Origin: a virus
UHGV virus genome: UHGV-0073881
Length of the DNA stretch: 64,000 nucleotides
Strand: one strand, 5' to 3'
The position numbers and the translations under genes were made by a program. This document shows, piece by piece, positions 1,647 through 56,969 of this stretch. The notes under the pieces are model-generated. The model was not told the DNA's origin, did no database searches, and saw only the letters and a list, made by a program, of their open reading frames with translations. Numbering within the stretch: position 1 is the first letter of the stretch; each line of letters starts with the position of its first letter.

Positions 1647-1943
1647 ATGTTTATCGCTGCAAATGTACGTTCCAAATTGAGCAAGCTTTTACAAGATATC
1701 AAATTTGTAGAATCTATGCGCCGCACTCATGAAGTAACGGAGTGGTATCATGGGAAAATAAATGGTAAAGAAGTTGTTATTTGTATTTGGAATTTTTGTA
1801 AAGAATACAAAAAGCCGTTGCTTCAGGTGGATATCTATGATAATGCAAATAAAAATTCTGTTAAGTCTACAAGGGATATGATAGATTCTTTTGAGATTAG
1901 CCACACTGGCAGACTATTTCACAAAGGAAAATCATCATGCTAA
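1647..1943 (+). CDS. hypothetical early protein (98 aa)
   Basis: ORF track; conserved leader. Confidence 0.55.
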   Translation: MFIAANVRSKLSKLLQDIKFVESMRRTHEVTEWYHGKINGKEVVICIWNFCKEYKKPLLQVDIYDNANKNSVKSTRDMIDSFEISHTGRLFHKGKSSC

Positions 1944-2260
1944 TTTCTGGAGTTGCCTTACTCATTGCTATTTTAGCACTGTATAAATCATGTAAAGCAC
2001 ATCATGCGGCAAGTGATGCAATCACAAGACAAATCAATAATAAACTTGTGACGTCCTTTCTAGAGCGTTTAAACGTGGAACAACTGAAGCGCTTAGAGAT
2101 GGGCTTCAGATTCAAGGCTGATACGTATCAGGTTAGCGACATTCTAAGCGGTGATTTTCAATTGATTGATGATTATAACGCTTTATTAAATGCTTTAAAT
2201 ATCAGTGACTTGAAAGATTATCATGCTGTTATTGTTCACGAAATAAGCAAACGAAAATAA
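1937..2260 (+). CDS. hypothetical protein with N-terminal hydrophobic helix (107 aa)
   Basis: ORF track; ATG 1937 overlaps upstream stop; N-terminus LISGVALLIAILALY. Confidence 0.55.
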   Translation: MLISGVALLIAILALYKSCKAHHAASDAITRQINNKLVTSFLERLNVEQLKRLEMGFRFKADTYQVSDILSGDFQLIDDYNALLNALNISDLKDYHAVIVHEISKRK

Positions 2261-7728: not shown

Positions 7729-8235
7729 CTAGAATTTTAGGTTGCATTCTTTACTCACTTCTTCAAATTTCTGTTCATGTTCCAAGGCTTTCTTCCTGTG
7801 GAACCTCATTCTTAAGTAGGCTGCAATCATACCACCTACAGGAAGCACATACAAGAACCAAATTTCTTCGATTTTGTTTATTGACTGCTTAATAGTCATT
7901 TCTTGACCGTAAAAAGCTGTTATAGCCACTGCACAGACCATGATAAAGAACATTGCCAAGAATACAATCATTCCTGCATAGGCTCTTACGTGCTGTTCTG
8001 ATAAAGTCTGCTTGTTCTTTGCATCAATCAGTCCGTTGTAGTCATTTGAAAAGTCCCTGTAGAAAGCTTTCAAGTATTCTCGGCTATAACCTTCAAAACA
8101 ACCTGTGCCAAACCAATCATCCCCTCCAAAGTGGGAAATTACACCCGTTTCACCGTTTGCTTTAACAATCTTGATAGAAACATGGTGCTTAGATTTTGTA
8201 TGGGAAATCTGGTCTCTTTCTTCTAACATAATCAT
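7729..8235 (-). CDS. hypothetical membrane protein (168 aa)
   Basis: ORF track; ATG start; two hydrophobic segments in C-terminal half. Confidence 0.6.
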   Translation of the reverse strand: MIMLEERDQISHTKSKHHVSIKIVKANGETGVISHFGGDDWFGTGCFEGYSREYLKAFYRDFSNDYNGLIDAKNKQTLSEQHVRAYAGMIVFLAMFFIMVCAVAITAFYGQEMTIKQSINKIEEIWFLYVLPVGGMIAAYLRMRFHRKKALEHEQKFEEVSKECNLKF

Positions 8236-11281: not shown

Positions 11282-11746
11282 TTACTTTGGGTATACAGCG
11301 TCAAGATAAATTTTTGCTTCCATTCTACGTCTGTTTTTCAGACCCTTAGAAGGTACTTTCTTACCTTTGACTGTAATCTTGTTCCACCATTGCATAGCTT
11401 CTGCGCATCCAACTTTATCTCCAGCATTATGACGCTTGATAAATGTCGAGGCTTGCATAGCTGCAATACCAATGTTATAAGTCTCAATGACAAGAGCATC
11501 AAACTCATTCTGTGTAGTAGGAACTTTAATCGCTCTTGCTACAGCACCAATGTAGTTTTCAACATCTGCCAGAAGATACTGTTCAGCTTGTTCAGCAGTA
11601 ATCTTCATACCCATAGTTACTGGTTTTCCGTGGATACGGATTGTACCGTATCCAATTGTAGGAATTCCAGCAGAGTCTGGATATGCTTCTAGCTCAAGCC
11701 CTTCAAAGAACTTGATAGCATCAAGACCTTTCTGTGAGAGCCTCAT
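11282..11746 (-). CDS. endolysin, GH24 lysozyme family (T4 e / lambda R-like muramidase)
   Basis: N-terminal FEGLELEAYPDSAGIPTIGYG matches the GH24 lysozyme catalytic motif (Glu ... TIGYG); 154 aa. Confidence 0.85.
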   Translation of the reverse strand: MRLSQKGLDAIKFFEGLELEAYPDSAGIPTIGYGTIRIHGKPVTMGMKITAEQAEQYLLADVENYIGAVARAIKVPTTQNEFDALVIETYNIGIAAMQASTFIKRHNAGDKVGCAEAMQWWNKITVKGKKVPSKGLKNRRRMEAKIYLDAVYPK

Positions 11747-41060: not shown

Positions 41061-42269
41061 ATGGCAGTTGGTGAAATTCAAATTAGTGCATTACCTCAAG
41101 CCTCTCTACCAATCGGGCTTAGTGATATTTTTCACTTGAAGCAGGGTATTGAGGATAAAAGGTGTACACTAGAGCAATTACTTGCTCCACACGCATCTTT
41201 AAAGAATAACCCACACGAAGTTACAAAAAATCAGGTTGGTTTGAGTAGTGTTATTAACGCACTCCAATTAGTTGCTGCTAATAACTTGTCAGATGTTGTT
41301 AATGTTCAGGAAGCAAGAGCAAACTTAGGAATCCTTTCAAGTGACCAAGTTAATGCTCTTATTCAGACTCACATTGATGACAAGAATAACCCTCACAATA
41401 CTACGAAGGGTCAAGTTGGATTAGGTAACCTCCAGAACTGGACATACTCCAATTCATACTCTGAAGATGCTGACAAATATGCTACAGCAAGGGCTGTAAA
41501 CGCACTGTACAGGGCTATTCAGAATAGTTACCCGATTGGTTCTATTCACCTGACTGTGAACCCTGCAAACCCCACTACGTACCTTCTTTGTGGGGGTACT
41601 TGGGAACTTGTCTCTAAAGGTAGAGCACTTGTAGGTTATGATACAGATTCCAGACCAGTTGATTCAACATTTGGTAGTCAGAATGTGACATTGAACAGTA
41701 ACCACTTACCTGCTCACAGCCACTCAATTTACCTAACTGGTGGTACTCACAAGCATGGTAATAGTGTTTCTGTATCAAGCTTTGACTACGGAACAAGAAC
41801 TACAAGTGGTTTTGACTATGGCACAAAGGCTACTAGTGGTTTTGACTATGGAAGCAAATCAACGACTCCATTTGATTATGGAAACAAATCTACGGATTAT
41901 AGTGGCGACCATACCCATACGATTCCAGATTTTCCTGCTTATGAATGGAAAAATGCCACCGACAATGGTCGTTACAGAATGGGGATTAACACTAGAGATG
42001 GGGTAACAGGCTCATCCGGGAATCACGCGCATACAGTCTATATTGGTGCTCATAGCCATTCTGTGTATATCGGTGCTCACAACCACACACTTGATATCGG
42101 TGCTCACAACCATACTTTGGCAATTGGTGCTCACACACATACAGTAACTGTAGACATTGAAGATGCTGACCATACACACTCTGGTACAACTGGTAACACT
42201 GGTAGTGGACAAGCTTTTAGTGTGGAGCAACCTTCCTATGTAGTTTACATCTGGAAGAGAGTAGCTTAA
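41061..42269 (+). CDS. tail fiber protein with tandem FDYG repeats and His-x-His C-terminal repeats
   Basis: four tandem (S/G)FDYG(T/S)K repeats; C-terminal GAHSHSVYIGAHNHTLDIGAHNHTLAIGAHTHTV resembles metal-binding HxH motifs of T4-type fiber tips. Confidence 0.7.
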   Translation: MAVGEIQISALPQASLPIGLSDIFHLKQGIEDKRCTLEQLLAPHASLKNNPHEVTKNQVGLSSVINALQLVAANNLSDVVNVQEARANLGILSSDQVNALIQTHIDDKNNPHNTTKGQVGLGNLQNWTYSNSYSEDADKYATARAVNALYRAIQNSYPIGSIHLTVNPANPTTYLLCGGTWELVSKGRALVGYDTDSRPVDSTFGSQNVTLNSNHLPAHSHSIYLTGGTHKHGNSVSVSSFDYGTRTTSGFDYGTKATSGFDYGSKSTTPFDYGNKSTDYSGDHTHTIPDFPAYEWKNATDNGRYRMGINTRDGVTGSSGNHAHTVYIGAHSHSVYIGAHNHTLDIGAHNHTLAIGAHTHTVTVDIEDADHTHSGTTGNTGSGQAFSVEQPSYVVYIWKRVA

Positions 42270-42315: not shown

Positions 42316-44664
42316 ATGGCTGAATACAAACTAAGTGAACTAAACAGTATTGATACAGTTCGCTCAGACGACCTATTACATTTGAGAGTTATTAAAAGAC
42401 CTGAAATGTTAGGTGACGAAGACCGTAAAATTACTTACGCAAATTTTCTAGCCTCATTTAGACTTGAAAGATTCCTGCAATTATCTGGTGGAACTATGAC
42501 AGGTAATTTGGGAATTGTGAAGTTAACTTACGGTGGAAAAGATTTATTTGACCCTACAAATTCTTCTGAAATTTCTATTGGGGATACTGCAAAGACTTTT
42601 AAAGTTAATGCAAATGGTCTTGCTTTAAAAGTTGCCGATGCAACAAGAACTGCATTTGTTTATCACACTCTGAATAAACCAAGCCCAGCAGATTTGGGTA
42701 TGAGAACAAATGCTGAAAATGATGCAAGATATGCTATTAAGAATGCAGATAACACCTTTGCAGCTAGGCAGATTGTTAATATCAACGGTGCTGGTATTAC
42801 CCTGAAAAGTATCTTCCCAGATGCTGGAGCATATTTTGAAGCAAGAGACTCTAACAATGCTTTGAGATTTACTGTAGGTAACTTGGATGCAAGTTCAGAT
42901 GTTACTTTAGTAAATAGCAAGGGTGCTAAGTTGACTCTTGGGACAAACGCTGTTAGTGTTGATAAGGATTTTGCAATTACTGGTCAAGTATTACCAAGTG
43001 ATTTGTCTAACTTCGATGCAAGATACTACACTCAGAATGCTGCTGACCAGAGATTTGCAAGACTGACTGCAAATAACACCTTCTCAGGTACTAACAATTT
43101 CACAAACTATCAGACAATCACTTCTGATGGGGCTTTGCTGAGATTGAAGCCAGCTACAGCAAATGGTGCAGTGTTTGTTCAAGCTTATGCAGGTTCTGGC
43201 TCAGAGTCTTGGTATCTTGGTCAACCTGACGGGACTAAGCAGGATGTTAACTTGTTTAACCAGATGACAGGTGCAACTATGAGACTCTCTACAGAGTTCT
43301 TCTTCAGTAAAGCACTAAACGTTACTGGACAGGTTAAGCCAAGTGACTACAACAACTTTGACTCAAGATACCTGCCAGCTTCTTTAGGTAGCACACTTGC
43401 TAGGACTAACTCTGCAAATACTTTTAATGGTATTCAGACTATCCTATCTGATGAAACTCCGCTTCTACTGAAGAATAATACACTTAATGCACCATTGTAT
43501 ATTTCAGGGATTAATGCAAACAACATTAGAAGATGGTATCTTGGTAATGGAGACCGTTACAATCCAGAATCCCTATTTTTGTCTAATGACACAACAGGTG
43601 CAGCGATTGTATTAAGTAACACCATTAATATGACTAAGACCATTAATGTTACTGGTCAGGTTCAACCAAGTGATTTGTCTAACTTTGATGCAAGATACTT
43701 CTTAAAAGGTTATTTCATTGGTCAATCAGTTATGACAAGAACGGTCAATGCTCTTGACAAACCAAACACTTTTGACATTAACTACGCAGGGTTTGTGAGA
43801 GCAAATGGTATGATTGATGGGTTAGGCTCTTTAGCTATTCATGTTCCACACTCTGCTGGTTGTGAGCATGGTAGAGGCATTAGTTTTGACTATGGAAGTG
43901 TGGGTTCGGGTCTTGGTCTAGGCACATATGCCTATGATGCAAGTGGTAATTACCGTGGTTCAGCAGAAATCTACACAACTGCCAGAAAACCAACAACTGC
44001 GGAGTTAGGTGTGTACAGTAAAGCAGAAACTGACCAGAGAATTGCAACAGCTATCACAAACTCAACAGACCTAAACAAGATTTACCCTGTAGGTATGGTT
44101 ACACTGTTTGCTTCTAATGTCAACCCTAACGTAGCCTTTGCAGGAACTACTTGGGCTTACTTGGCAAATGGACAGTTTAGAACTATCCGTATTGCATCGT
44201 CAACTGGTGAAGATGTTGGTTCGGTTGGTGGTTCAGATACTAAGAGTATTGCCGTTGGGCATCTTCCAAACCACACGCACAGTTTCTCAGGTACTGTATC
44301 GACATTTGACCACGGAACAATTGGTACTTCACTAAACGGTTGGCATGGTCACTCTGTGAGTGGCTCTACTGCTGCTGCTGGTGCTCACAACCACACATCA
44401 TTTGCACTTGGTTGGCAGAAGGGATGGGGTTTCCCAGCCGGTAACCAGAACATGGGTGAGTATGCAAAACCAACGTCAACTAATGGTGAACACGCTCACT
44501 CATTCTCCGGCACTGCTGCTGGCGATGGTAACCACACTCACACTGTTCCAGTTGGTGCTCACAACCATACTTTCAGTGGTAACACTGGTGGTACGGGTTC
44601 TGGTTCAGCATTTGACGTTACTAACGCATTCATTAAATTGATGGCATGGGTTAGAACTGCGTAA
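42316..44664 (+). CDS. long tail fiber protein with His-x-His C-terminal repeats
   Basis: 782 aa; repeated PSDxxNFDxRY motif three times; C-terminal HTHSFSG...GAHNHT...GEHAHSFSG...GNHTHTVPVGAHNHT. Confidence 0.75.
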   Translation: MAEYKLSELNSIDTVRSDDLLHLRVIKRPEMLGDEDRKITYANFLASFRLERFLQLSGGTMTGNLGIVKLTYGGKDLFDPTNSSEISIGDTAKTFKVNANGLALKVADATRTAFVYHTLNKPSPADLGMRTNAENDARYAIKNADNTFAARQIVNINGAGITLKSIFPDAGAYFEARDSNNALRFTVGNLDASSDVTLVNSKGAKLTLGTNAVSVDKDFAITGQVLPSDLSNFDARYYTQNAADQRFARLTANNTFSGTNNFTNYQTITSDGALLRLKPATANGAVFVQAYAGSGSESWYLGQPDGTKQDVNLFNQMTGATMRLSTEFFFSKALNVTGQVKPSDYNNFDSRYLPASLGSTLARTNSANTFNGIQTILSDETPLLLKNNTLNAPLYISGINANNIRRWYLGNGDRYNPESLFLSNDTTGAAIVLSNTINMTKTINVTGQVQPSDLSNFDARYFLKGYFIGQSVMTRTVNALDKPNTFDINYAGFVRANGMIDGLGSLAIHVPHSAGCEHGRGISFDYGSVGSGLGLGTYAYDASGNYRGSAEIYTTARKPTTAELGVYSKAETDQRIATAITNSTDLNKIYPVGMVTLFASNVNPNVAFAGTTWAYLANGQFRTIRIASSTGEDVGSVGGSDTKSIAVGHLPNHTHSFSGTVSTFDHGTIGTSLNGWHGHSVSGSTAAAGAHNHTSFALGWQKGWGFPAGNQNMGEYAKPTSTNGEHAHSFSGTAAGDGNHTHTVPVGAHNHTFSGNTGGTGSGSAFDVTNAFIKLMAWVRTA

Positions 44665-44750
44665 TCAACTTATTGACTAATTGTTAAGATGGTGTTAATA
44701 TTTCTTAGTAGGTATTCTCACCATCTTGGCTTAAGAAGTAAGGTGATTAA

Positions 44751-44945
44751 ATGCCAACTATCCTAGCAATCCTCTTAAAAAACCTTGGGGCATTCTTCTG
44801 GAAGCTTGCACTTTCTCTTCTAAGTGAATACATGATTGAAAAAGCATTCTTCAGACTTGCAAGATACCTTGCGAGTAAGACTGATACGCCTATCGACGAT
44901 GAATTTGTAGATAACTTGGAAAAAGCTTTTAAAGGTGAGAAATAA
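44751..44945 (+). CDS. hypothetical small protein (64 aa), possible membrane protein
   Basis: ORF track; hydrophobic N-terminal half. Confidence 0.45.
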   Translation: MPTILAILLKNLGAFFWKLALSLLSEYMIEKAFFRLARYLASKTDTPIDDEFVDNLEKAFKGEK

Positions 44946-45319
44946 TGAAGTGGTTAGAAGATGCTTTCAAGAATAATATCGGTGCAATTGTTGTAGGTAT
45001 TTTCAGTGTAATTGGGATGTACACTACAATGCAGGTCTCTGACGGAAAGCAAGAAGTTTCTATCAACACAAAGTTACAACAGTTGGATAGTTACTCAAAA
45101 GGTAACTATTCATCTATTCGTGATTTGCAGTCTGATATGAGACTTCTTCAGTTAGGTATGGAGAACCAGAAGGTACAGCTAGAGAACGTTAAGGGGGAAA
45201 ACGCTAAGTTGACCAAAACCCTTGATAAATTCTCAGATAGTGTGAACAACTTAGCACAGTCTGTATCAGCTTTACAAGCAATTACCGAACAAAATACACA
45301 AAGCACTAAGAAAAAATAA
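44945..45319 (+). CDS. hypothetical protein with N-terminal transmembrane helix and coiled-coil C-terminus (124 aa)
   Basis: IGAIVVGIFSVIGMYTTM hydrophobic segment, then Q/L-rich heptad-like region. Confidence 0.5.
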   Translation: MKWLEDAFKNNIGAIVVGIFSVIGMYTTMQVSDGKQEVSINTKLQQLDSYSKGNYSSIRDLQSDMRLLQLGMENQKVQLENVKGENAKLTKTLDKFSDSVNNLAQSVSALQAITEQNTQSTKKK

Positions 45320-45323
45320 TGTT

Positions 45324-45352
45324 AAGGCTCCCGTAAAAAGGAGCCTTTTTCT
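45324..45352. terminator. bidirectional rho-independent terminator between convergent blocks
   Basis: stem AAGGCTCC/GGAGCCTT, loop CGTAAAA, flanked by A-run and T-run. Confidence 0.6.
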
Positions 45353-45355
45353 TAT

Positions 45356-46255
45356 CTACTTACCAACTGACAAGGGAGCTTCAATCTTCCCTGCATGACG
45401 GTAATCTTTCAAGCCACCTATGAAGTCACTTGCAGTTTTATGTTTAATGTCTTCAAGGCATTTCAAGTCTTGAACAATCTCAAATTTAGGTGCTGGAAAC
45501 TCTTCATTACCTAGCAACTGGAAAACCTGAGACATATGGTTTTGATAAATTTGAGTATCCCCAAAAGTGCCTACCAAGTATCTTGGAGTGTACCCTGTCA
45601 TCTTACACAGAACATGCAAAATAAAACCATATGATGCAATATTAAATGGTAAACCTAAGAAGGTGTCACATGACCTTTGATACCATTTCAAATCCATCTC
45701 TCCAGTATTCGAAACATAAATCTGGAAAAGAACATGACAAGGTGCTAATGCCATAGAACCACTTGCAATATCTGCTGCATTCCAAGCATTAACCAGCATG
45801 TAACGGTCTGTAGGAGACTTTTTAACCTTATCAATAAGAATGTCTAACTGGTCAACTACAACGCCACCATGACCTTCTGAAGCCCTCCACTGGACACCAT
45901 AGATTCGTCCACCTGCATCTTCCAGCCAATCCTTCTCAGTCGCATAAGAAGTCTTCAACCAACGCTTGAAGTCATCTGTCCAGATAGTCCAACGTTCTCC
46001 GTCATTCTCTCCCCAAGTTCTGTATCGAAGAGTTCCAAGGGTGTTTTCACCATTTAAGAACCAAAGTGCTTCCCCAATTACCTGACGCATGAAGGTTTGC
46101 TTTGAAGTGATTAATGGGAATCCAGAACGCATATCAAAGCGAAACTCTGGTGGAGCAAAGGTGGTAACAACTTTACCAGTTCGTGTATCACGCTGCTCAC
46201 CGACTGTTAAAACATGGTTCAAAATATTCTTGTAACTTACATCTGCTTGTGACAT
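45356..46255 (-). CDS. thyA: thymidylate synthase (ThyA type)
   Basis: RDTRTGKVVTTFAPPEFRFDMRSGFPLITSK, active-site MALAPCH and YQRSCDTFLGLPFNIASY motifs. Confidence 0.9.
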   Translation of the reverse strand: MSQADVSYKNILNHVLTVGEQRDTRTGKVVTTFAPPEFRFDMRSGFPLITSKQTFMRQVIGEALWFLNGENTLGTLRYRTWGENDGERWTIWTDDFKRWLKTSYATEKDWLEDAGGRIYGVQWRASEGHGGVVVDQLDILIDKVKKSPTDRYMLVNAWNAADIASGSMALAPCHVLFQIYVSNTGEMDLKWYQRSCDTFLGLPFNIASYGFILHVLCKMTGYTPRYLVGTFGDTQIYQNHMSQVFQLLGNEEFPAPKFEIVQDLKCLEDIKHKTASDFIGGLKDYRHAGKIEAPLSVGK

Positions 46256-46256
46256 A

Positions 46257-46802
46257 TCAGAAACGTCCTCTTACTTGTGGAACATAAATGTTGAATACAA
46301 CGCTGTCATCCTTCGATGGTTTTGACTGTATTCTAGCAAAAGTTGACTCATCATACAAGTACTCAAAGAAACCCTTGTAAGGAAGCTTCACAGTTGCTTC
46401 TTCAGTCACTTCACGAATATATGTTTGACAAACTGCATCTGCATATGGTAAAGCTTGGATTAGAATGCTTGCCCCGCCAATTATACAAACATCTTGCTCG
46501 ATACTATTATCAAGATGTTTTAAGAATGCCCCAAAAGCGTCTGAATGAACCTTAGCAAACATTACATCTTCTCTACCAAAATCTATACCTTCATACGGTA
46601 ATGAGTTTGTCAGAACAATATTATCACGGTCTGGTAAAGGTTTGCTTCCAAGACTCTTGAAAGTGTCATTACCCATAACTACCAATTGACCTGTGGTAAT
46701 CTTTTTGAACTCTTGCATGTCTTGCTTATTACGAGGCCAAGGCATACCAGAAGGACAACCAAACTCCCCGTTAAGACCATTTGCAAAAACTAATTTAATC
46801 AT
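46257..46802 (-). CDS. folA: dihydrofolate reductase
   Basis: MPW ... VVMGNDTFKSLGSKPLPDRDNIVLTN pattern of DHFR; adjacent to thyA. Confidence 0.85.
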   Translation of the reverse strand: MIKLVFANGLNGEFGCPSGMPWPRNKQDMQEFKKITTGQLVVMGNDTFKSLGSKPLPDRDNIVLTNSLPYEGIDFGREDVMFAKVHSDAFGAFLKHLDNSIEQDVCIIGGASILIQALPYADAVCQTYIREVTEEATVKLPYKGFFEYLYDESTFARIQSKPSKDDSVVFNIYVPQVRGRF

Positions 46803-52229: not shown

Positions 52230-52483
52230 TTTCTCTTACCACCAATCTCTACGTCGATAACTTGAGTGTCTCCACAAACATCAAACTTGTGAATGACATT
52301 TTCTACAGTGTAAGTCCAACCATCAATCCTTACCCACTCACCTTCTCGTGGTACGATAGGGTTACGTTGGGCAACTGTAGTAGTTGAGTGTATAACGTCA
52401 TATAGGTGAATAAAGTTTACCAGTACTTGCATCTTAATATCCTTCGTCAATAACGGTGATGTGTTGAGTGCTTGACTTACCAT
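52226..52483 (-). CDS. hypothetical protein (85 aa)
   Basis: ORF track. Confidence 0.45.
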   Translation of the reverse strand: MVSQALNTSPLLTKDIKMQVLVNFIHLYDVIHSTTTVAQRNPIVPREGEWVRIDGWTYTVENVIHKFDVCGDTQVIDVEIGGKRK

Positions 52484-52679
52484 ACCTGTAAGAAGTTGTT
52501 GTCTGTGAATTTGGGCAACGGACTACTATTAAGTCATATTTAAATGTTGACCAATTAAGTTTGTATATTGAACAATCTCTCATCTCTGGAGGTAACTCAT
52601 AGCTACTGTCTTGTTTGTCATAACTTGGGTTACAGCCAGTTAGAAAAAGCACTCCAAGTGCAATGATTGTTTTCCACAT
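52434..52679 (-). CDS. putative lipoprotein (81 aa)
   Basis: N-terminus MWKTIIALGVLFLTGCNP with lipobox LTGC. Confidence 0.5.
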   Translation of the reverse strand: MWKTIIALGVLFLTGCNPSYDKQDSSYELPPEMRDCSIYKLNWSTFKYDLIVVRCPNSQTTTSYRYGKSSTQHITVIDEGY

Positions 52680-53490: not shown

Positions 53491-54003
53491 TCAACTTAGT
53501 TTTGCAAACTCTCCGTGGAGTTTCATAGCAGCTTCACAGTAAGCTTCATGGGCTTCTTCAGGGGTGTCATACATCCCAAGATGATAATTCTTACCTTGTA
53601 AACGAATCATTGCCCTAAACCTTTTCCCTATCTTCTGTACACCTTTTGGTAAACCTGATATGGACTTTCTAGACCGATTGCAAGAGTTTTGTGAAGCCGT
53701 ACAAACCCTCAAATTCAAATACCTATTATCCCAACCATCACAATTCTTGTGGTCAACCTGTAAGGTTTTATCAGGTAGGTATCCATCCATATACAAGATA
53801 ACTAAACGATTTGCTTGGTAACTCCTTCCATCAATCAGCAATTGGACAGACTTGTGACCATCAGTGTTTGTTCTGTAGTTTCCAGCCCTCTTACCTCCAA
53901 ATCTAGAGTTAAAGTTTGCATTACCTTCTCTAAATTTCCAAGTAAAGACCCCTGTATCGGGGTCGTACTCTAAAAGCTCCTTTAAACGAATTTCTGTAAT
54001 CAT
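53491..54003 (-). CDS. HNH homing endonuclease (NUMOD4-like N-terminus, HNH, AP2-like C-terminus)
   Basis: LKELLEYDPDTGVFTW, VDHKNCDGWDNRYLNLRVCTASQN, GVQKIGKRFRAMIRLQGKNYHLGMYDTPEEAHEAY; start moved from TTG 54042 to ATG 54003. Confidence 0.85.
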   Translation of the reverse strand: MITEIRLKELLEYDPDTGVFTWKFREGNANFNSRFGGKRAGNYRTNTDGHKSVQLLIDGRSYQANRLVILYMDGYLPDKTLQVDHKNCDGWDNRYLNLRVCTASQNSCNRSRKSISGLPKGVQKIGKRFRAMIRLQGKNYHLGMYDTPEEAHEAYCEAAMKLHGEFAKLS

Positions 54004-54013
54004 TTCAACACCA

Positions 54014-56713
54014 TCAATGTACTTCCAACCAGCTCTTACCAACCTTACCAGTACCTGTAACCATAGTTTCTTTTCTTAGACCAAGGTTTTTAGAAGCCTG
54101 CCCGTACATCCAGTCAGTGATAGCTTTAACCTCTTGAGTCATACTTTCTGGACATTCCCAACTATTTTCATCGTGATATGCCAGAAGAAGTCTAGCTCCA
54201 ATAGCTGGCTTACGTCCATTCAGCTTCATCAACCCTTCATCATAGGCTCTACGACATGCAAGGTTAATTGCTTCATTCTGTACTTGACTTTCTGAACCCA
54301 TCAAAAGGTAATTTAACAGCTTGTGTGGAGACTTACACCATAACCAAGCTCCAGCAACCTTTACAAAACCCCCTTTAGAGATTGCAGCAGTCTTACCAAA
54401 GACCTCTTCAAGAGCCTTCTTAGTCGCTTTAAAGTCAGCTTCTAAGTTATCAATCAGTTTCTTAATCTTCGGCAAACGAACGAAGTAAGTCTGTTTAGTC
54501 AATGCACCCTCCTGAGTAGTTGCTGCTTTAATGGTCTTAGCAAACTTCTCATCCCCTGCACCAAACAGCAGTGCATAGATGCCATTCTTAGCTTTCTTAC
54601 GACCTTTACTGATTTCGTGAAGAAGATTTTCATCCTGAGTCATACGACAAGTCAAGATATCCTGCTCATCATTCAAGCTGAAGTAGATACTGTTCAGTGT
54701 GTGAGCATCAGTGCCTGAGTAAACTACGTACAAGTCGTTTTCAGAGTCATAACGCAGATACTTGTCAACCTCTGGATTCAGGTATTCGTCAAAGTGTTTG
54801 CAGTAGTAGCGACCATCTTCTTGACGAACAAATTCAATCTCTTCTTTACCTTCGGTTACCGCTTTGGTGAACTCTTTATCACCCATAAAGTTACACAGTA
54901 AAACAAGCTGTGCAGAGTTCATATCCACAGAGACTACGTTGGTTCCCTTCTCACAAATCCAAACTGCCCTCATTGGTTCACCATAAACAGCAGCACCGGA
55001 AGGTACGTTTACAATACCATACTGTGTCATACGTCCAGTGGATGTACCAAACACCATTGCACCAGCACTTAAACGACCATCTGGACGAATCTGATTCAAC
55101 CAACCTTTCTCATCATCCTTTGAGTTCTCAATAGTTCTGCGTCGGTGCATCAAAGTATAGTACTTCGCAATCTTCTGCCCAAGTTCACCTTCGATAGTGT
55201 CATAAGAAGATTCAGTCAGTTTTGGTGAAGTACGAATCAAGCAAGGTTCAAGAACATCTGTGTATTTCTTCACAGACCAATTATGCTCGATGTACTGTAC
55301 CCCTTCATGCTCAACGTAGTTTAAACCACAACGTTCAACCATTTCATCCCACTTAGGATGTTTACGAATCATCTTCTTATTATCTTTGAAGCGACAAACC
55401 TTAACAGGACGACCATCTGAGTCTTTCTTGTAGTTCCAATCATCAGGAATCCAACCAACAGATTTCAGATACTCTTTAACTACTGCAACCTGAGTCATGC
55501 GTGAAACTTCAAACTCAATCGGTGTATATGGTGCATCAATCAAACCCGTGTAACGACTTGACTCAAGTTCAAAGTGATTAACAACATGATTGTTGTAGTA
55601 CTTGACAATCTTAACAGTTTTAACTGGCTTCCAATCTTTGCACTTCTTGTCAACCTTCGCATTTAGCTCATTACATACTGCACGAGCATCTTTCATTGCC
55701 ACGAAACCTTCTTTGTACTCTTCTCCGGTTACCGTGTTAGTTGGTGTGTAGCAGTTACGTTTCTCTACGCTGAAAATCTTGGTAGTTGGTTTACCAAATG
55801 GCTTAATAGGATAACTTTGCATTTCCCCATTACGAACCTGCTGACGATACTTTGTCTTAGGATACTTGGTAATACGTTTCAAACCATCTGCTTCACCAAA
55901 AGTTTCAACATACTCATTCCAAGCTTTTGCAAATTCTTCACCAGTAACTTTCCCTTTTGTCTTGATAGTTGGTGGTAAGAATGGCTCAACCTCTGAAGCA
56001 AGGTCAGCAGTCATCTTATCAAGTTCTTTAACACAACTCTTCATCATGTTAATGTCAGCTTTCCAACCATTGATAGCTTGCTGGCTCATCCAGAAAGATG
56101 TTTCTTTAGCTCGCATGTAGGTTTCGTAGGTATCCACACCACACTTCTTCAGCTTCACATACTCATTATCAAGAGCACGTTTAGTTTTGGCGTTGATTCG
56201 AATATCTTCAACAACACGAGTTAAGATTTCAGCGTTCCAAACTCCCCACTCTTCAATCTCAGGCTTACGGACACCAACACGAGCACCCCATGCAGCCAAA
56301 CCATGAGAACCCTTGTAACCTTTCGGTGTAGGTCTATCCATCCACTGAACACGAGATTGGATAAGTGAATCTTGGAAGAAATTACTCCAAGGCTTACATT
56401 TAGGGTTATCAAAGTTCCACAGGTCAGGTGCAATGTGGTTGAACACCCACCAGTCATAACCAAGACCGTTGTGAATGCAAAGACGTTTCGCCTTTAAAGC
56501 AAACTCAACACCCTCTCTTAAGCCACCCTTGATATACTTGGTGTACTTGTGACCAAGAATAGGCTCATCAGTGAATACCCACACAGGTGGTTCATCACTG
56601 TCATCTTTGTAATCTGCAAAAGCCATTACGTGAGCTTTAGTGAACTCAAGCAGCAATCCGTCAGTTTCTGTATCGCCTACCAGATGCAAATTTTTAAAGT
56701 CTACGTTTTCCAT
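54014..56713 (-). CDS. DNA polymerase, family A with 3-5 exonuclease domain
   Basis: exo motif HLVGDTETDGL, polymerase motif B-like KNGIYALLFGAGDEKF and motif C YHDE; start at ATG 56713 (MENVDF) with GAGGGAG RBS. Confidence 0.9.
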   Translation of the reverse strand: MENVDFKNLHLVGDTETDGLLLEFTKAHVMAFADYKDDSDEPPVWVFTDEPILGHKYTKYIKGGLREGVEFALKAKRLCIHNGLGYDWWVFNHIAPDLWNFDNPKCKPWSNFFQDSLIQSRVQWMDRPTPKGYKGSHGLAAWGARVGVRKPEIEEWGVWNAEILTRVVEDIRINAKTKRALDNEYVKLKKCGVDTYETYMRAKETSFWMSQQAINGWKADINMMKSCVKELDKMTADLASEVEPFLPPTIKTKGKVTGEEFAKAWNEYVETFGEADGLKRITKYPKTKYRQQVRNGEMQSYPIKPFGKPTTKIFSVEKRNCYTPTNTVTGEEYKEGFVAMKDARAVCNELNAKVDKKCKDWKPVKTVKIVKYYNNHVVNHFELESSRYTGLIDAPYTPIEFEVSRMTQVAVVKEYLKSVGWIPDDWNYKKDSDGRPVKVCRFKDNKKMIRKHPKWDEMVERCGLNYVEHEGVQYIEHNWSVKKYTDVLEPCLIRTSPKLTESSYDTIEGELGQKIAKYYTLMHRRRTIENSKDDEKGWLNQIRPDGRLSAGAMVFGTSTGRMTQYGIVNVPSGAAVYGEPMRAVWICEKGTNVVSVDMNSAQLVLLCNFMGDKEFTKAVTEGKEEIEFVRQEDGRYYCKHFDEYLNPEVDKYLRYDSENDLYVVYSGTDAHTLNSIYFSLNDEQDILTCRMTQDENLLHEISKGRKKAKNGIYALLFGAGDEKFAKTIKAATTQEGALTKQTYFVRLPKIKKLIDNLEADFKATKKALEEVFGKTAAISKGGFVKVAGAWLWCKSPHKLLNYLLMGSESQVQNEAINLACRRAYDEGLMKLNGRKPAIGARLLLAYHDENSWECPESMTQEVKAITDWMYGQASKNLGLRKETMVTGTGKVGKSWLEVH

Positions 56714-56969
56714 TTTCACTCCCTCTCAAACATATGACTCCATACCTTACTGCAAAACGACACAAAAAGCAAGTTGACAAATAACTTGACAGGGTGTTAG
56801 TCTTGTATGCAGTGGGTTTTAACTTAAAAGACTCCCTTTACAGATTAACTATACAGATTCTTTAAAACCCTTAAAAGATTTTAATAGCTTTTAAAAAGCT
56901 TTAAAGTATTACGTATAGAATACGTAAAGAAAGAGATTAAGACTTAATAGAAACTATAAAGAGGCTGCC

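Follow-up and report, generated by a model that had tools for sequence, protein, structure and literature searches.

A P18-like gene coupled to a putative holin gene downstream of the fibre genes in a Felix O1-like phage

In bacteriophage T4, the holin gene t follows the fibre genes, gene e lies elsewhere, and the spanin genes pseT.3 and pseT.2 are found beside pseT. In T7, the holin gene 17.5 follows the tail-fibre gene 17, and the amidase gene 3.5 is far away. A holin gene placed after the fibre genes is thus the normal arrangement in both phages. For the corticovirus PM2, two reports (PMC9502842, PMC6356626) describe protein P17, encoded by gene k, as depolarising and permeabilising the cytoplasmic membrane and protein P18 (gp l) as necessary thereafter for disruption of the outer membrane. 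Homologues of P18 were identified in PaP3, Felix O1, RB49, P-SSM4, S-PM2 and P-SSM2 by Krupovic and Bamford (2007, PMC1950889); this homology has been in print since 2007 and is ignored by GenBank annotation.

Among the Felix O1-like phages (Ounavirinae), scattered lysis genes have been described for Felix O1 (PMC3185647), Moogle (PMC4319497) and Meda (PMC6486253), and the spanins of the group were catalogued by Kongari et al. (PMC6139136). In Felix O1, Whichard et al. (2010) assigned gp77 as a fibre and proposed five holin candidates, gp79 being one of them. In the announcements of Moogle and Michonne, the gp79 homologue appears as a putative holin (class III) and the lysis genes are described as scattered; the Meda announcement (PMC6486253) calls no holin though the homologue is present. 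A functional test of either gp79 or the product of the gene before it was not found for any Ounavirinae phage in the literature searched.

The DNA considered here is a stretch of 64,000 nucleotides from the virus genome UHGV-0073881, referred to below as the window. The source is a Mooglevirus-like member of the Felix O1-like myophages (Ounavirinae); positions 44000-46500 share 82-87% nucleotide identity with Mooglevirus and its relatives, e.g. Citrobacter phages HP1, Moogle and Mijalis, and the Mijalis genome is collinear with the window over ~17.7-81.6 kb. The original prediction, made from the letters of the DNA, had pointed to two small ORFs behind the tail fibres as resembling lysis accessory genes, separated from the endolysin by 33 kb. 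Features of the locus are collected in Table 1. The two ORFs, of 64 and 124 codons, share 1 nucleotide within the sequence TAATG, and are followed by a terminator and then by convergent genes for thymidylate synthase and DHFR. The pair is most likely a compact, translationally coupled lysis module with which the tail-fibre block ends on its 3' side. In this module a P18-like outer-membrane factor would be combined with a 124-aa holin, a reading to which a probability of roughly 0.6 is assigned.

Table 1. Positions of the features discussed, numbered from the first nucleotide of the window
Feature	Position	Strand	Details
Tail-fibre genes (two), upstream of the pair	41061-42269, 42316-44664		PHROG/Pfam tail-fibre matches
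Sigma-70-like promoter candidate	44673-44701	+	TTGACT, 17 nt, TAATAT; upstream TG; just 5' of the pair
Conserved inverted repeat / RNA stem-loop	44683-44730	+	(TT)AAGATGGTG ... CACCATCTT(GG); -10 element inside
64-aa gene	44751-44945	+	ATG; SD AAGGTGA at 44740-44746; PM2 P18/gp l family (very probable)
124-aa gene	44945-45319	+	ATG; SD GGTGAG at 44934-44939; Felix O1 gp79 homologue, putative holin
Rho-independent terminator, bidirectional	45324-45347	both	Terminator scan; closes the pair and convergent thyA
Endolysin gene	11282-11746	-	154 aa; PF00959, E=4e-38; phrog_7 endolysin, E=4e-55

Both members of the pair are genuine genes. Comparison with 19-24 distinct relatives gave dN/dS values of ~0.02 for each ORF, with synonymous sites near saturation, at nucleotide identities of ~80-93% and protein identities of 88-98%. 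Searches with tblastn recovered homologues of the 124-aa and 64-aa ORFs in phage records (261 and 397, respectively). Given these dN/dS values and the occurrence of homologues in hundreds of phage records, neither is a chance ORF, and the two small ORFs originally proposed at 44751-45319 were confirmed with respect to coordinates, SD sites and coding character. The order of fibre gene, small ORF, overlapping 111-124-aa ORF, terminator and thyA was found in Felixounavirus, Mooglevirus, Kolesnikvirus (Erwinia phage M7), Zyzzx (a Hafnia phage) and Bas63, and it is kept even where the 124-aa counterpart is only 27-30% identical. The overlap between the two genes, and with it translational coupling, was seen in every Ounavirinae locus examined. 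From this synteny and the position of the t79 terminator, we infer that gp78 and gp79 of Felix O1 are the homologues of the 64-aa and 124-aa proteins, respectively. In Bas63 the pair corresponds to bas63_0028/0029.

The 64-aa protein can be assigned, with little doubt and on the basis of sequence, to the P18 family (PF26925, Phage_PM2_Gpl). It belongs to phrog_402 (E=2e-20), for which PHROG gives the function as unknown, and precomputed matches to PF26925 exist for 76 of 76 relatives, including those 89-95% identical to it; Pfam and NCBIfam scans of the ORF itself were both empty, the local Pfam library being one without the PF26925 model. When a diverse family alignment of ten members was compared with PM2 gp l (51 aa) by hhalign, a probability of 94% (E=1.3e-7) was obtained, with 37% identity over 43 columns. 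A tblastn search with PM2 gp l matched the family member ECO319P1 directly (E=0.04). The protein shares the small (~50-80 aa), all-helical character of the family and its core, FF...A...T-x-T-x-x-DD(E/x)F. In family alignments F33, F34, T46 and D49 are invariant and E26, A37, T44 and D50 near-invariant. The AF2 model, built from an alignment of 35 sequences (pLDDT 79), predicts a hydrophobic N-terminal helix (residues 2-23), an amphipathic middle helix (26-43) and an acidic C-terminal helix (47-63) that bears the conserved T-x-T-x-x-D-D-E-F motif. A Foldseek search of this model against the PDB gave nothing significant, and an IMG/VR scan with the 64-aa alignment, a narrow pattern, returned mainly close relatives.

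The description of this protein as hydrophobic was correct for its first ~23 residues, to which the hydrophobicity is confined (highest Kyte-Doolittle mean over 19 residues 1.55; the segment includes two lysines), whereas the remainder is amphipathic and acidic. Across the family the N-terminal helix reaches 2.08 in some members and 1.27 in others, and it is largely missing from PM2 gp l. Neither a cysteine nor a lipobox is present. A disruptin, i.e. a cationic peptide of the phiKT gp28 type, was considered and rejected: the protein contains nine Lys plus Arg and nine Asp plus Glu residues, giving a net charge of ~0 with an acidic C terminus. An assignment to a recognised holin or spanin was also set aside, the protein falling instead in the PM2 P18/gp l family, a third type of lysis factor. 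By analogy with PM2, the P18-like protein would act on the outer membrane in the source phage too.

The genomic surroundings of P18-like genes in other phages bear directly on this function. Distant P18-like genes lie immediately 3' of endolysin genes of at least three kinds in independent lineages. In a Shewanella baltica prophage the upstream gene encodes a GH24 lysozyme, and in a metagenomic phage an Amidase_3 endolysin. In the otherwise similar Vibrio phages 2.095.A and 1.090.B, the P18-like gene follows two different endolysins, a GH24 lysozyme and a different lysozyme-like enzyme, respectively. At another locus it follows a gene for a lysozyme-domain protein of 1112 aa, and in a TARA ocean phage one for a DUF5675 protein of unknown function. 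At the endolysin-linked and TARA loci examined, the upstream gene was accompanied by no small membrane-active ORF other than the P18-like one, and no lipoprotein ORF was found in the 6-12 kb that these loci covered. In two T4-like lineages the P18-like gene has the distal fibre gene on one side and a T4-type holin gene t on the other, and in PM2 the gp l gene overlaps the holin-like gene k. In PM2 and in the T4-like phages, the immediate partner of the P18-type gene thus encodes a holin or holin-like protein with a single transmembrane domain (TMD); in the window the partner encodes the 124-aa protein, with a single predicted TMD. The chief observation contrary to a role in lysis is the placement of P18-like genes in Grimontviridae, SU10-like phages and Lahexavirus, where they lie within the head-tail structural block, away from the lysis genes.

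These contexts could also be taken to indicate that the P18-like 64-aa protein is the holin itself, a single-helix protein comparable with T7 gp17.5, and that the 124-aa protein is an antiholin or timing regulator. The status of the P18-like ORF as the only small membrane-active ORF by an endolysin or putative lysis gene in the Shewanella prophage, the two Vibrio phages, locus L048 and the TARA phage would accord with such a role, as would the lack of signal sequences in the endolysins at those loci and the holin-like combination of small size, N-terminal hydrophobic helix (up to 2.08) and charged C terminus. The loci are partial, however, and holins may lie elsewhere in those genomes; in many members the helix, at 1.27-1.55, is too polar for a TMD, and PM2 gp l is without it. 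Furthermore, the published accounts of PM2 assign the cytoplasmic-membrane lesion to P17 and the outer membrane to P18, and in T4-like phages the P18-like gene coexists with holin gene t. A holin function for the 64-aa protein is accordingly regarded as quite improbable.

The 124-aa protein, for which a database entry with 100% identity exists, belongs to phrog_4038 (E=5e-70), a group whose function PHROG likewise gives as unknown. Its relatives are few in kind: when 1.84 billion representative proteins were searched, only about three related clusters were recovered, all Ounavirinae-like. The original prediction described an N-terminal transmembrane helix and a coiled-coil tail. The helix is borderline in this protein (best 19-residue Kyte-Doolittle window 1.62, residues 11-29) but clear in distant homologues (1.83-1.84), and the tail is better described as one long helix, the AF2 model comprising helices at residues 2-29 (pLDDT below 50) and, behind a short linker, 40-123, the latter a single helix of 84 residues. 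Given that a distant homologue starts with MARRKEN, an N-in/C-out topology is favoured. The protein is probably anchored in the inner membrane by its first helix, N-in/C-out, and would extend a helix of ~12 nm into the periplasm. Such an architecture is shared by i-spanins and class III holins.

Comparison of the 124-aa protein with holin families gave no Pfam or NCBIfam match, including none to PF11031, and hhalign of its family with RB49 T, PM2 P17 (gp k) and the Mijalis i-spanin gave probabilities below 1%. Matches from Pfam, NCBIfam and the PDB to SMC, DivIC, Lpp, reovirus sigma-1 and designed coils were dismissed as sub-threshold coiled-coil noise, and a Foldseek search of the model against BFVD gave nothing significant. 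The holin/spanin-type resemblance originally claimed for the pair therefore pointed in the right direction, that of lysis, but not to the right families: the 64-aa protein falls in the P18 family, and the 124-aa protein matches no holin or spanin family. The pair was also considered as a two-component spanin. Here, the 124-aa protein has the architecture of an i-spanin, but a lipobox scan of the window in all frames, whose positive control (the genuine o-spanin of Mijalis) was recovered, revealed no plus-strand o-spanin candidate in or beside 44751-45319, and this assignment was rejected.

The endolysin said to lie 33 kb away proved genuine by its PF00959 match and is encoded on the minus strand. 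It is of the soluble lysozyme type, with neither a signal nor a SAR sequence, and its counterparts in Mijalis and Bas63 are annotated as endolysins. Because this enzyme is without a secretion signal, a holin is needed. In Mijalis and Bas63, canonical overlapped i/o-spanin genes adjoin those for polynucleotide kinase and rIIB; tblastn and the lipobox scan found no spanins inside the window, and by collinearity with Mijalis the spanin locus would lie ~3 kb past its left end. Given that the endolysin, the pair at the end of the fibre block and the spanins occupy separate sites, the lysis genes are distributed over three loci, as in T4. With no o-spanin partner beside the 124-aa gene and canonical spanins at the third locus, holin is the better guess for its product. 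The 124-aa protein, which is linked to lysis by its coupling to the P18-like gene and not by adjacency to the endolysin (33 kb), is considered the most plausible holin for this soluble enzyme. Other membrane ORFs of the window that could encode the holin are located at 7729-8235 and 1937-2260, and several more lie outside the window.

Homologues of the 124-aa protein are labelled 'putative holin', 'holin' or 'class III' in the records of many relatives, and the Bas63 annotation calls no holin despite the presence of a homologue. The basis of the 'holin' label is topology alone. The UE-M6 holin (PMC12661215) was rejected, being an unrelated protein with two TMDs that is paired with a GH108 lysin.

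The layout of the 124-aa protein also suggests a different device, namely a non-canonical envelope-spanning or outer-membrane machine in which the P18-like protein replaces the o-spanin and the true holin is another gene. In an i-spanin, too, a long periplasmic helix follows an N-terminal TMD; the two genes are coupled throughout the Ounavirinae; P18 is the outer-membrane factor of PM2; and in four endolysin-linked contexts the P18-like gene occupies the usual spanin position with no lipoprotein ORF near. Moreover, PaP3, P-SSM2, P-SSM4, S-PM2 and PM2, for which P18 or a homologue is reported, all appear on a list of phages in which no spanin was found (PMC6139136). Against this, a canonical overlapped i/o-spanin pair is already present in Ounavirinae and the 124-aa protein shows no similarity to the i-spanin of that pair, every other lineage has P18-like genes without a homologue of the 124-aa gene, and the 84-residue helix would reach across only about half of the periplasm. 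The device is thus considered unlikely.

The region immediately upstream of the pair contains a conserved element that may govern its expression. A consensus scan identified a promoter candidate with 9 of 12 consensus matches plus the TG, and both hexamers are near-invariant in all aligned Felixounavirus and Mooglevirus loci despite the saturation of synonymous sites nearby. The element is a candidate promoter. Applied to the window as a whole, a strict sigma-70 scan gave no division between early and late promoters. The inverted repeat that encloses the -10 element is unchanged in both arms in all relatives compared, and RNA folding of positions 44665-44750 gave -26.9 kcal/mol (z = -4.9). Kolesnikvirus and Zyzzx have a canonical terminator in its place, and the stem-loop may terminate or process transcripts that read through from the tail-fibre gene. 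Downstream of the pair, the bidirectional terminator has an annotated counterpart in Mijalis, and its Felix O1 equivalent bears the names t79/t80.

The setting of the pair has also to be weighed against functions other than lysis, such as superinfection exclusion, membrane protection or assistance in fibre or virion assembly. The pair ends a tail-fibre block, but a holin gene after the fibre genes is normal in T4 and T7, and RB49 is arranged likewise. P18-like genes do occur in the structural modules of Grimontviridae, SU10-like phages and Lahexavirus; elsewhere, however, they are recurrently and directly linked to endolysin genes and to holin gene t, and the family is homologous to an experimentally defined lysis factor. 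The possibility raised with the original prediction, that the proteins are virion components, was checked against the virion proteome list of Felix O1, from which gp78 and gp79 are both missing. A host-type promoter candidate lies upstream of the pair, and end-point RT-PCR in Felix O1 placed ORF79 in the '5 min' class, with ORF78 grouped with the lysin at 25 min; this assay is crude, given that the major capsid gene also falls in the '5 min' class. The lysis and membrane genes of Bas63 are mostly non-essential (PMC11482910), but pooled fitness assays often score lysis genes as non-essential, as for T7 (PMC11482910). Taken together, a non-lytic role for the pair has only a slim chance of being correct.

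The lysis-module reading would operate as follows. The coupled pair would be produced late in infection, and the 124-aa protein would build up in the inner membrane and serve as the holin for the cytoplasmic lysozyme. The P18-like protein would aid breakdown of the envelope, most probably at the stage of the outer membrane by analogy with PM2, and the spanins of the third locus would finish or duplicate that stage. Because spanins are already encoded, an outer-membrane role of the P18-like protein would be redundant, which weighs against the module. A broader proposal is that P18-like proteins constitute a widespread, overlooked third class of outer-membrane lysis factor, which in the Ounavirinae would form a lipoprotein-free unit with the 124-aa protein, so that two breaching systems operate in parallel and the holin lies elsewhere; this proposal is speculative and probably incorrect.

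A split lysis cassette, as the original prediction put it, remains the best reading of the locus, but it comes as no surprise, having been published for Felix O1, Moogle and Meda and having parallels in T4 and T7. The arrangement is already documented for the Felix O1-like group, and in this respect the finding is ordinary. Its value lies in an annotation gap: in spite of the published P18 homology and the existence of a Pfam family, the 64-aa gene is 'hypothetical' in essentially all of the ~250 Ounavirinae genomes and 'L-fuculose phosphate aldolase' in two records. Given that Felix O1-like phages are used in biocontrol and diagnostics of Salmonella and E. coli, their lysis machinery is of applied interest. 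Also of interest is the retention of a P18-type gene beside a holin gene in spanin-bearing phages, i.e. the Felix O1-like and RB49-like groups.

Comparison with the k/l genes of PM2 reveals a similar design. In both phages a gp l-type gene overlaps one that encodes a small protein whose N-terminal TMD, predicted in the case of the 124-aa protein, precedes a helical or coiled-coil remainder, and in each the late/structural gene block ends with the pair. The order differs, being k then l in PM2 and l-like then TMD gene here. The 124-aa protein is over twice the length of P17, to which it shows no detectable similarity, and gp l is without the extra N-terminal hydrophobic helix of the 64-aa protein. 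PM2 is, in addition, reported to be without endolysin or spanins, whereas the Felix O1-like group has both; a later study predicts that the PM2 structural protein P5 is an endolysin.

With respect to the lambda Rz/Rz1 spanins, the 124-aa protein resembles an i-spanin in its predicted N-terminal TMD and helical periplasmic domain, and the P18 family has been described as a functional analogue that acts on the outer membrane. By contrast with Rz/Rz1, no lipoprotein partner is embedded in, overlapping or adjacent to the gene here. The T7 gene 17.5 provides a parallel of position, as a small lysis gene directly after the fibre gene and apart from the muralytic enzyme, although gp17.5 is a class II-type holin and no sequence relationship is expected.

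The overall layout is closest to that of T4, in that the holin candidate follows the distal fibre gene, the endolysin is distant and the spanins lie by polynucleotide kinase and rII. The topology predicted for the 124-aa protein, a single TMD, N-in/C-out, with a periplasmic domain, is the 'class III' layout; the protein is not a homologue of T, and its periplasmic part would be one long helix in place of the larger domain of T. In the RB49-like phages, the P18-like gene ORF251w/Dc5 lies between gene 37 and t, the same synteny as that observed here.

Upstream of the gene pair comprising the 64-aa P18-like protein (related to the PM2 lysis factor P18) and the 124-aa putative holin lies an intergenic region that is near-invariant in Felixounavirus and Mooglevirus, whereas synonymous sites close by are saturated. 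This region contains a sigma-70-like promoter candidate (TTGACT, 17-nt spacing and TAATAT with TG), which is nested inside a stable stem-loop (folding energy -26.9 kcal/mol, z = -4.9) whose outermost base pairs reach the Shine-Dalgarno site. In Kolesnikvirus and Hafnia phage Zyzzx, a plain terminator occupies this position instead. The 64-aa homologue is mislabelled "L-fuculose phosphate aldolase" in two GenBank records; the misannotated relatives are OK272490 (JLBYU32), PP693300 (Yersinia phage P778) and OK539913 (HP1), and in HP1 the thymidylate synthase label sits on the DHFR gene and the DHFR label on the next small ORF.

Features considered in the phage window and in two Vibrio phage loci
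Feature	Sequence	Coordinates	Strand	Size	Remarks
Intergenic region upstream of pair	Window	44665-44750		86 nt	
Lipoprotein-signal ORF	Window	52434-52679	-	81 aa	Textbook lipoprotein signal MWKTIIALGVLFLTGC...
Central-TMD ORF	Window	7729-8235	-	168 aa	Single strong central TMD, Kyte-Doolittle 2.84
Hydrophobic N-terminus ORF	Window	1937-2260	+	107 aa	N-terminus strongly hydrophobic, Kyte-Doolittle 2.07
HNH-type homing-endonuclease-like ORF	Window	53491-54042	-	183 aa	Contains ...QVDHKNCDGWDNRYLNLRVCTASQN...
DNA polymerase gene	Window	54014-56719	-		
Endolysin/P18-like locus	L007 (Vibrio phage 1.090.B)	3477-4210			
Endolysin/P18-like locus	L008 (Vibrio phage 2.095.A)	2479-3210			

Two further ORFs of the window encode predicted membrane proteins. 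The 168-aa ORF, located ∼3 kb downstream of the endolysin gene on the same strand, is a candidate alternative holin. By synteny alone, it matches Mijalis gene 100 and bas63_0116; the latter scored as more essential in Escherichia coli S17-1 than in other strains in the PhageMaP work, where a role in lysis was raised as speculation (PMC11482910). The 107-aa ORF, within a block of small, presumably early genes, is predicted to encode another uncharacterised membrane protein.

Only one convincing lipobox ORF was found within the window. It lies among small genes between those for DNA ligase and DNA polymerase, no i-spanin-like gene adjoins it, and its product might be an exclusion lipoprotein of the Cor/Llp type. 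The HNH-type ORF directly adjoins the DNA polymerase gene at the latter's 3' end, a position equivalent to that of homing endonucleases annotated in relatives.

P18 or a homologue has been reported in PaP3, P-SSM2, P-SSM4, S-PM2 and PM2 (PMC1950889), and all five appear on the list of phages in which Kongari et al. found no spanin (PMC6139136). This overlap may be partly trivial, because the list includes the majority of cyanophages in any case (PMC6139136). In Felix O1 and RB49, a P18 homologue and spanins are both present (PMC1950889, PMC6139136).

No TMD-bearing or lipoprotein ORF was found near the P18-like gene in the two Vibrio phage loci. These phages, 1.090.B and 2.095.A, are otherwise alike, and their endolysins are unrelated, one being lysozyme-like and the other T4-lysozyme-like. 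The P18-like gene that follows is identical in both, so that the endolysin looks to have been swapped and the accessory P18-like gene kept.
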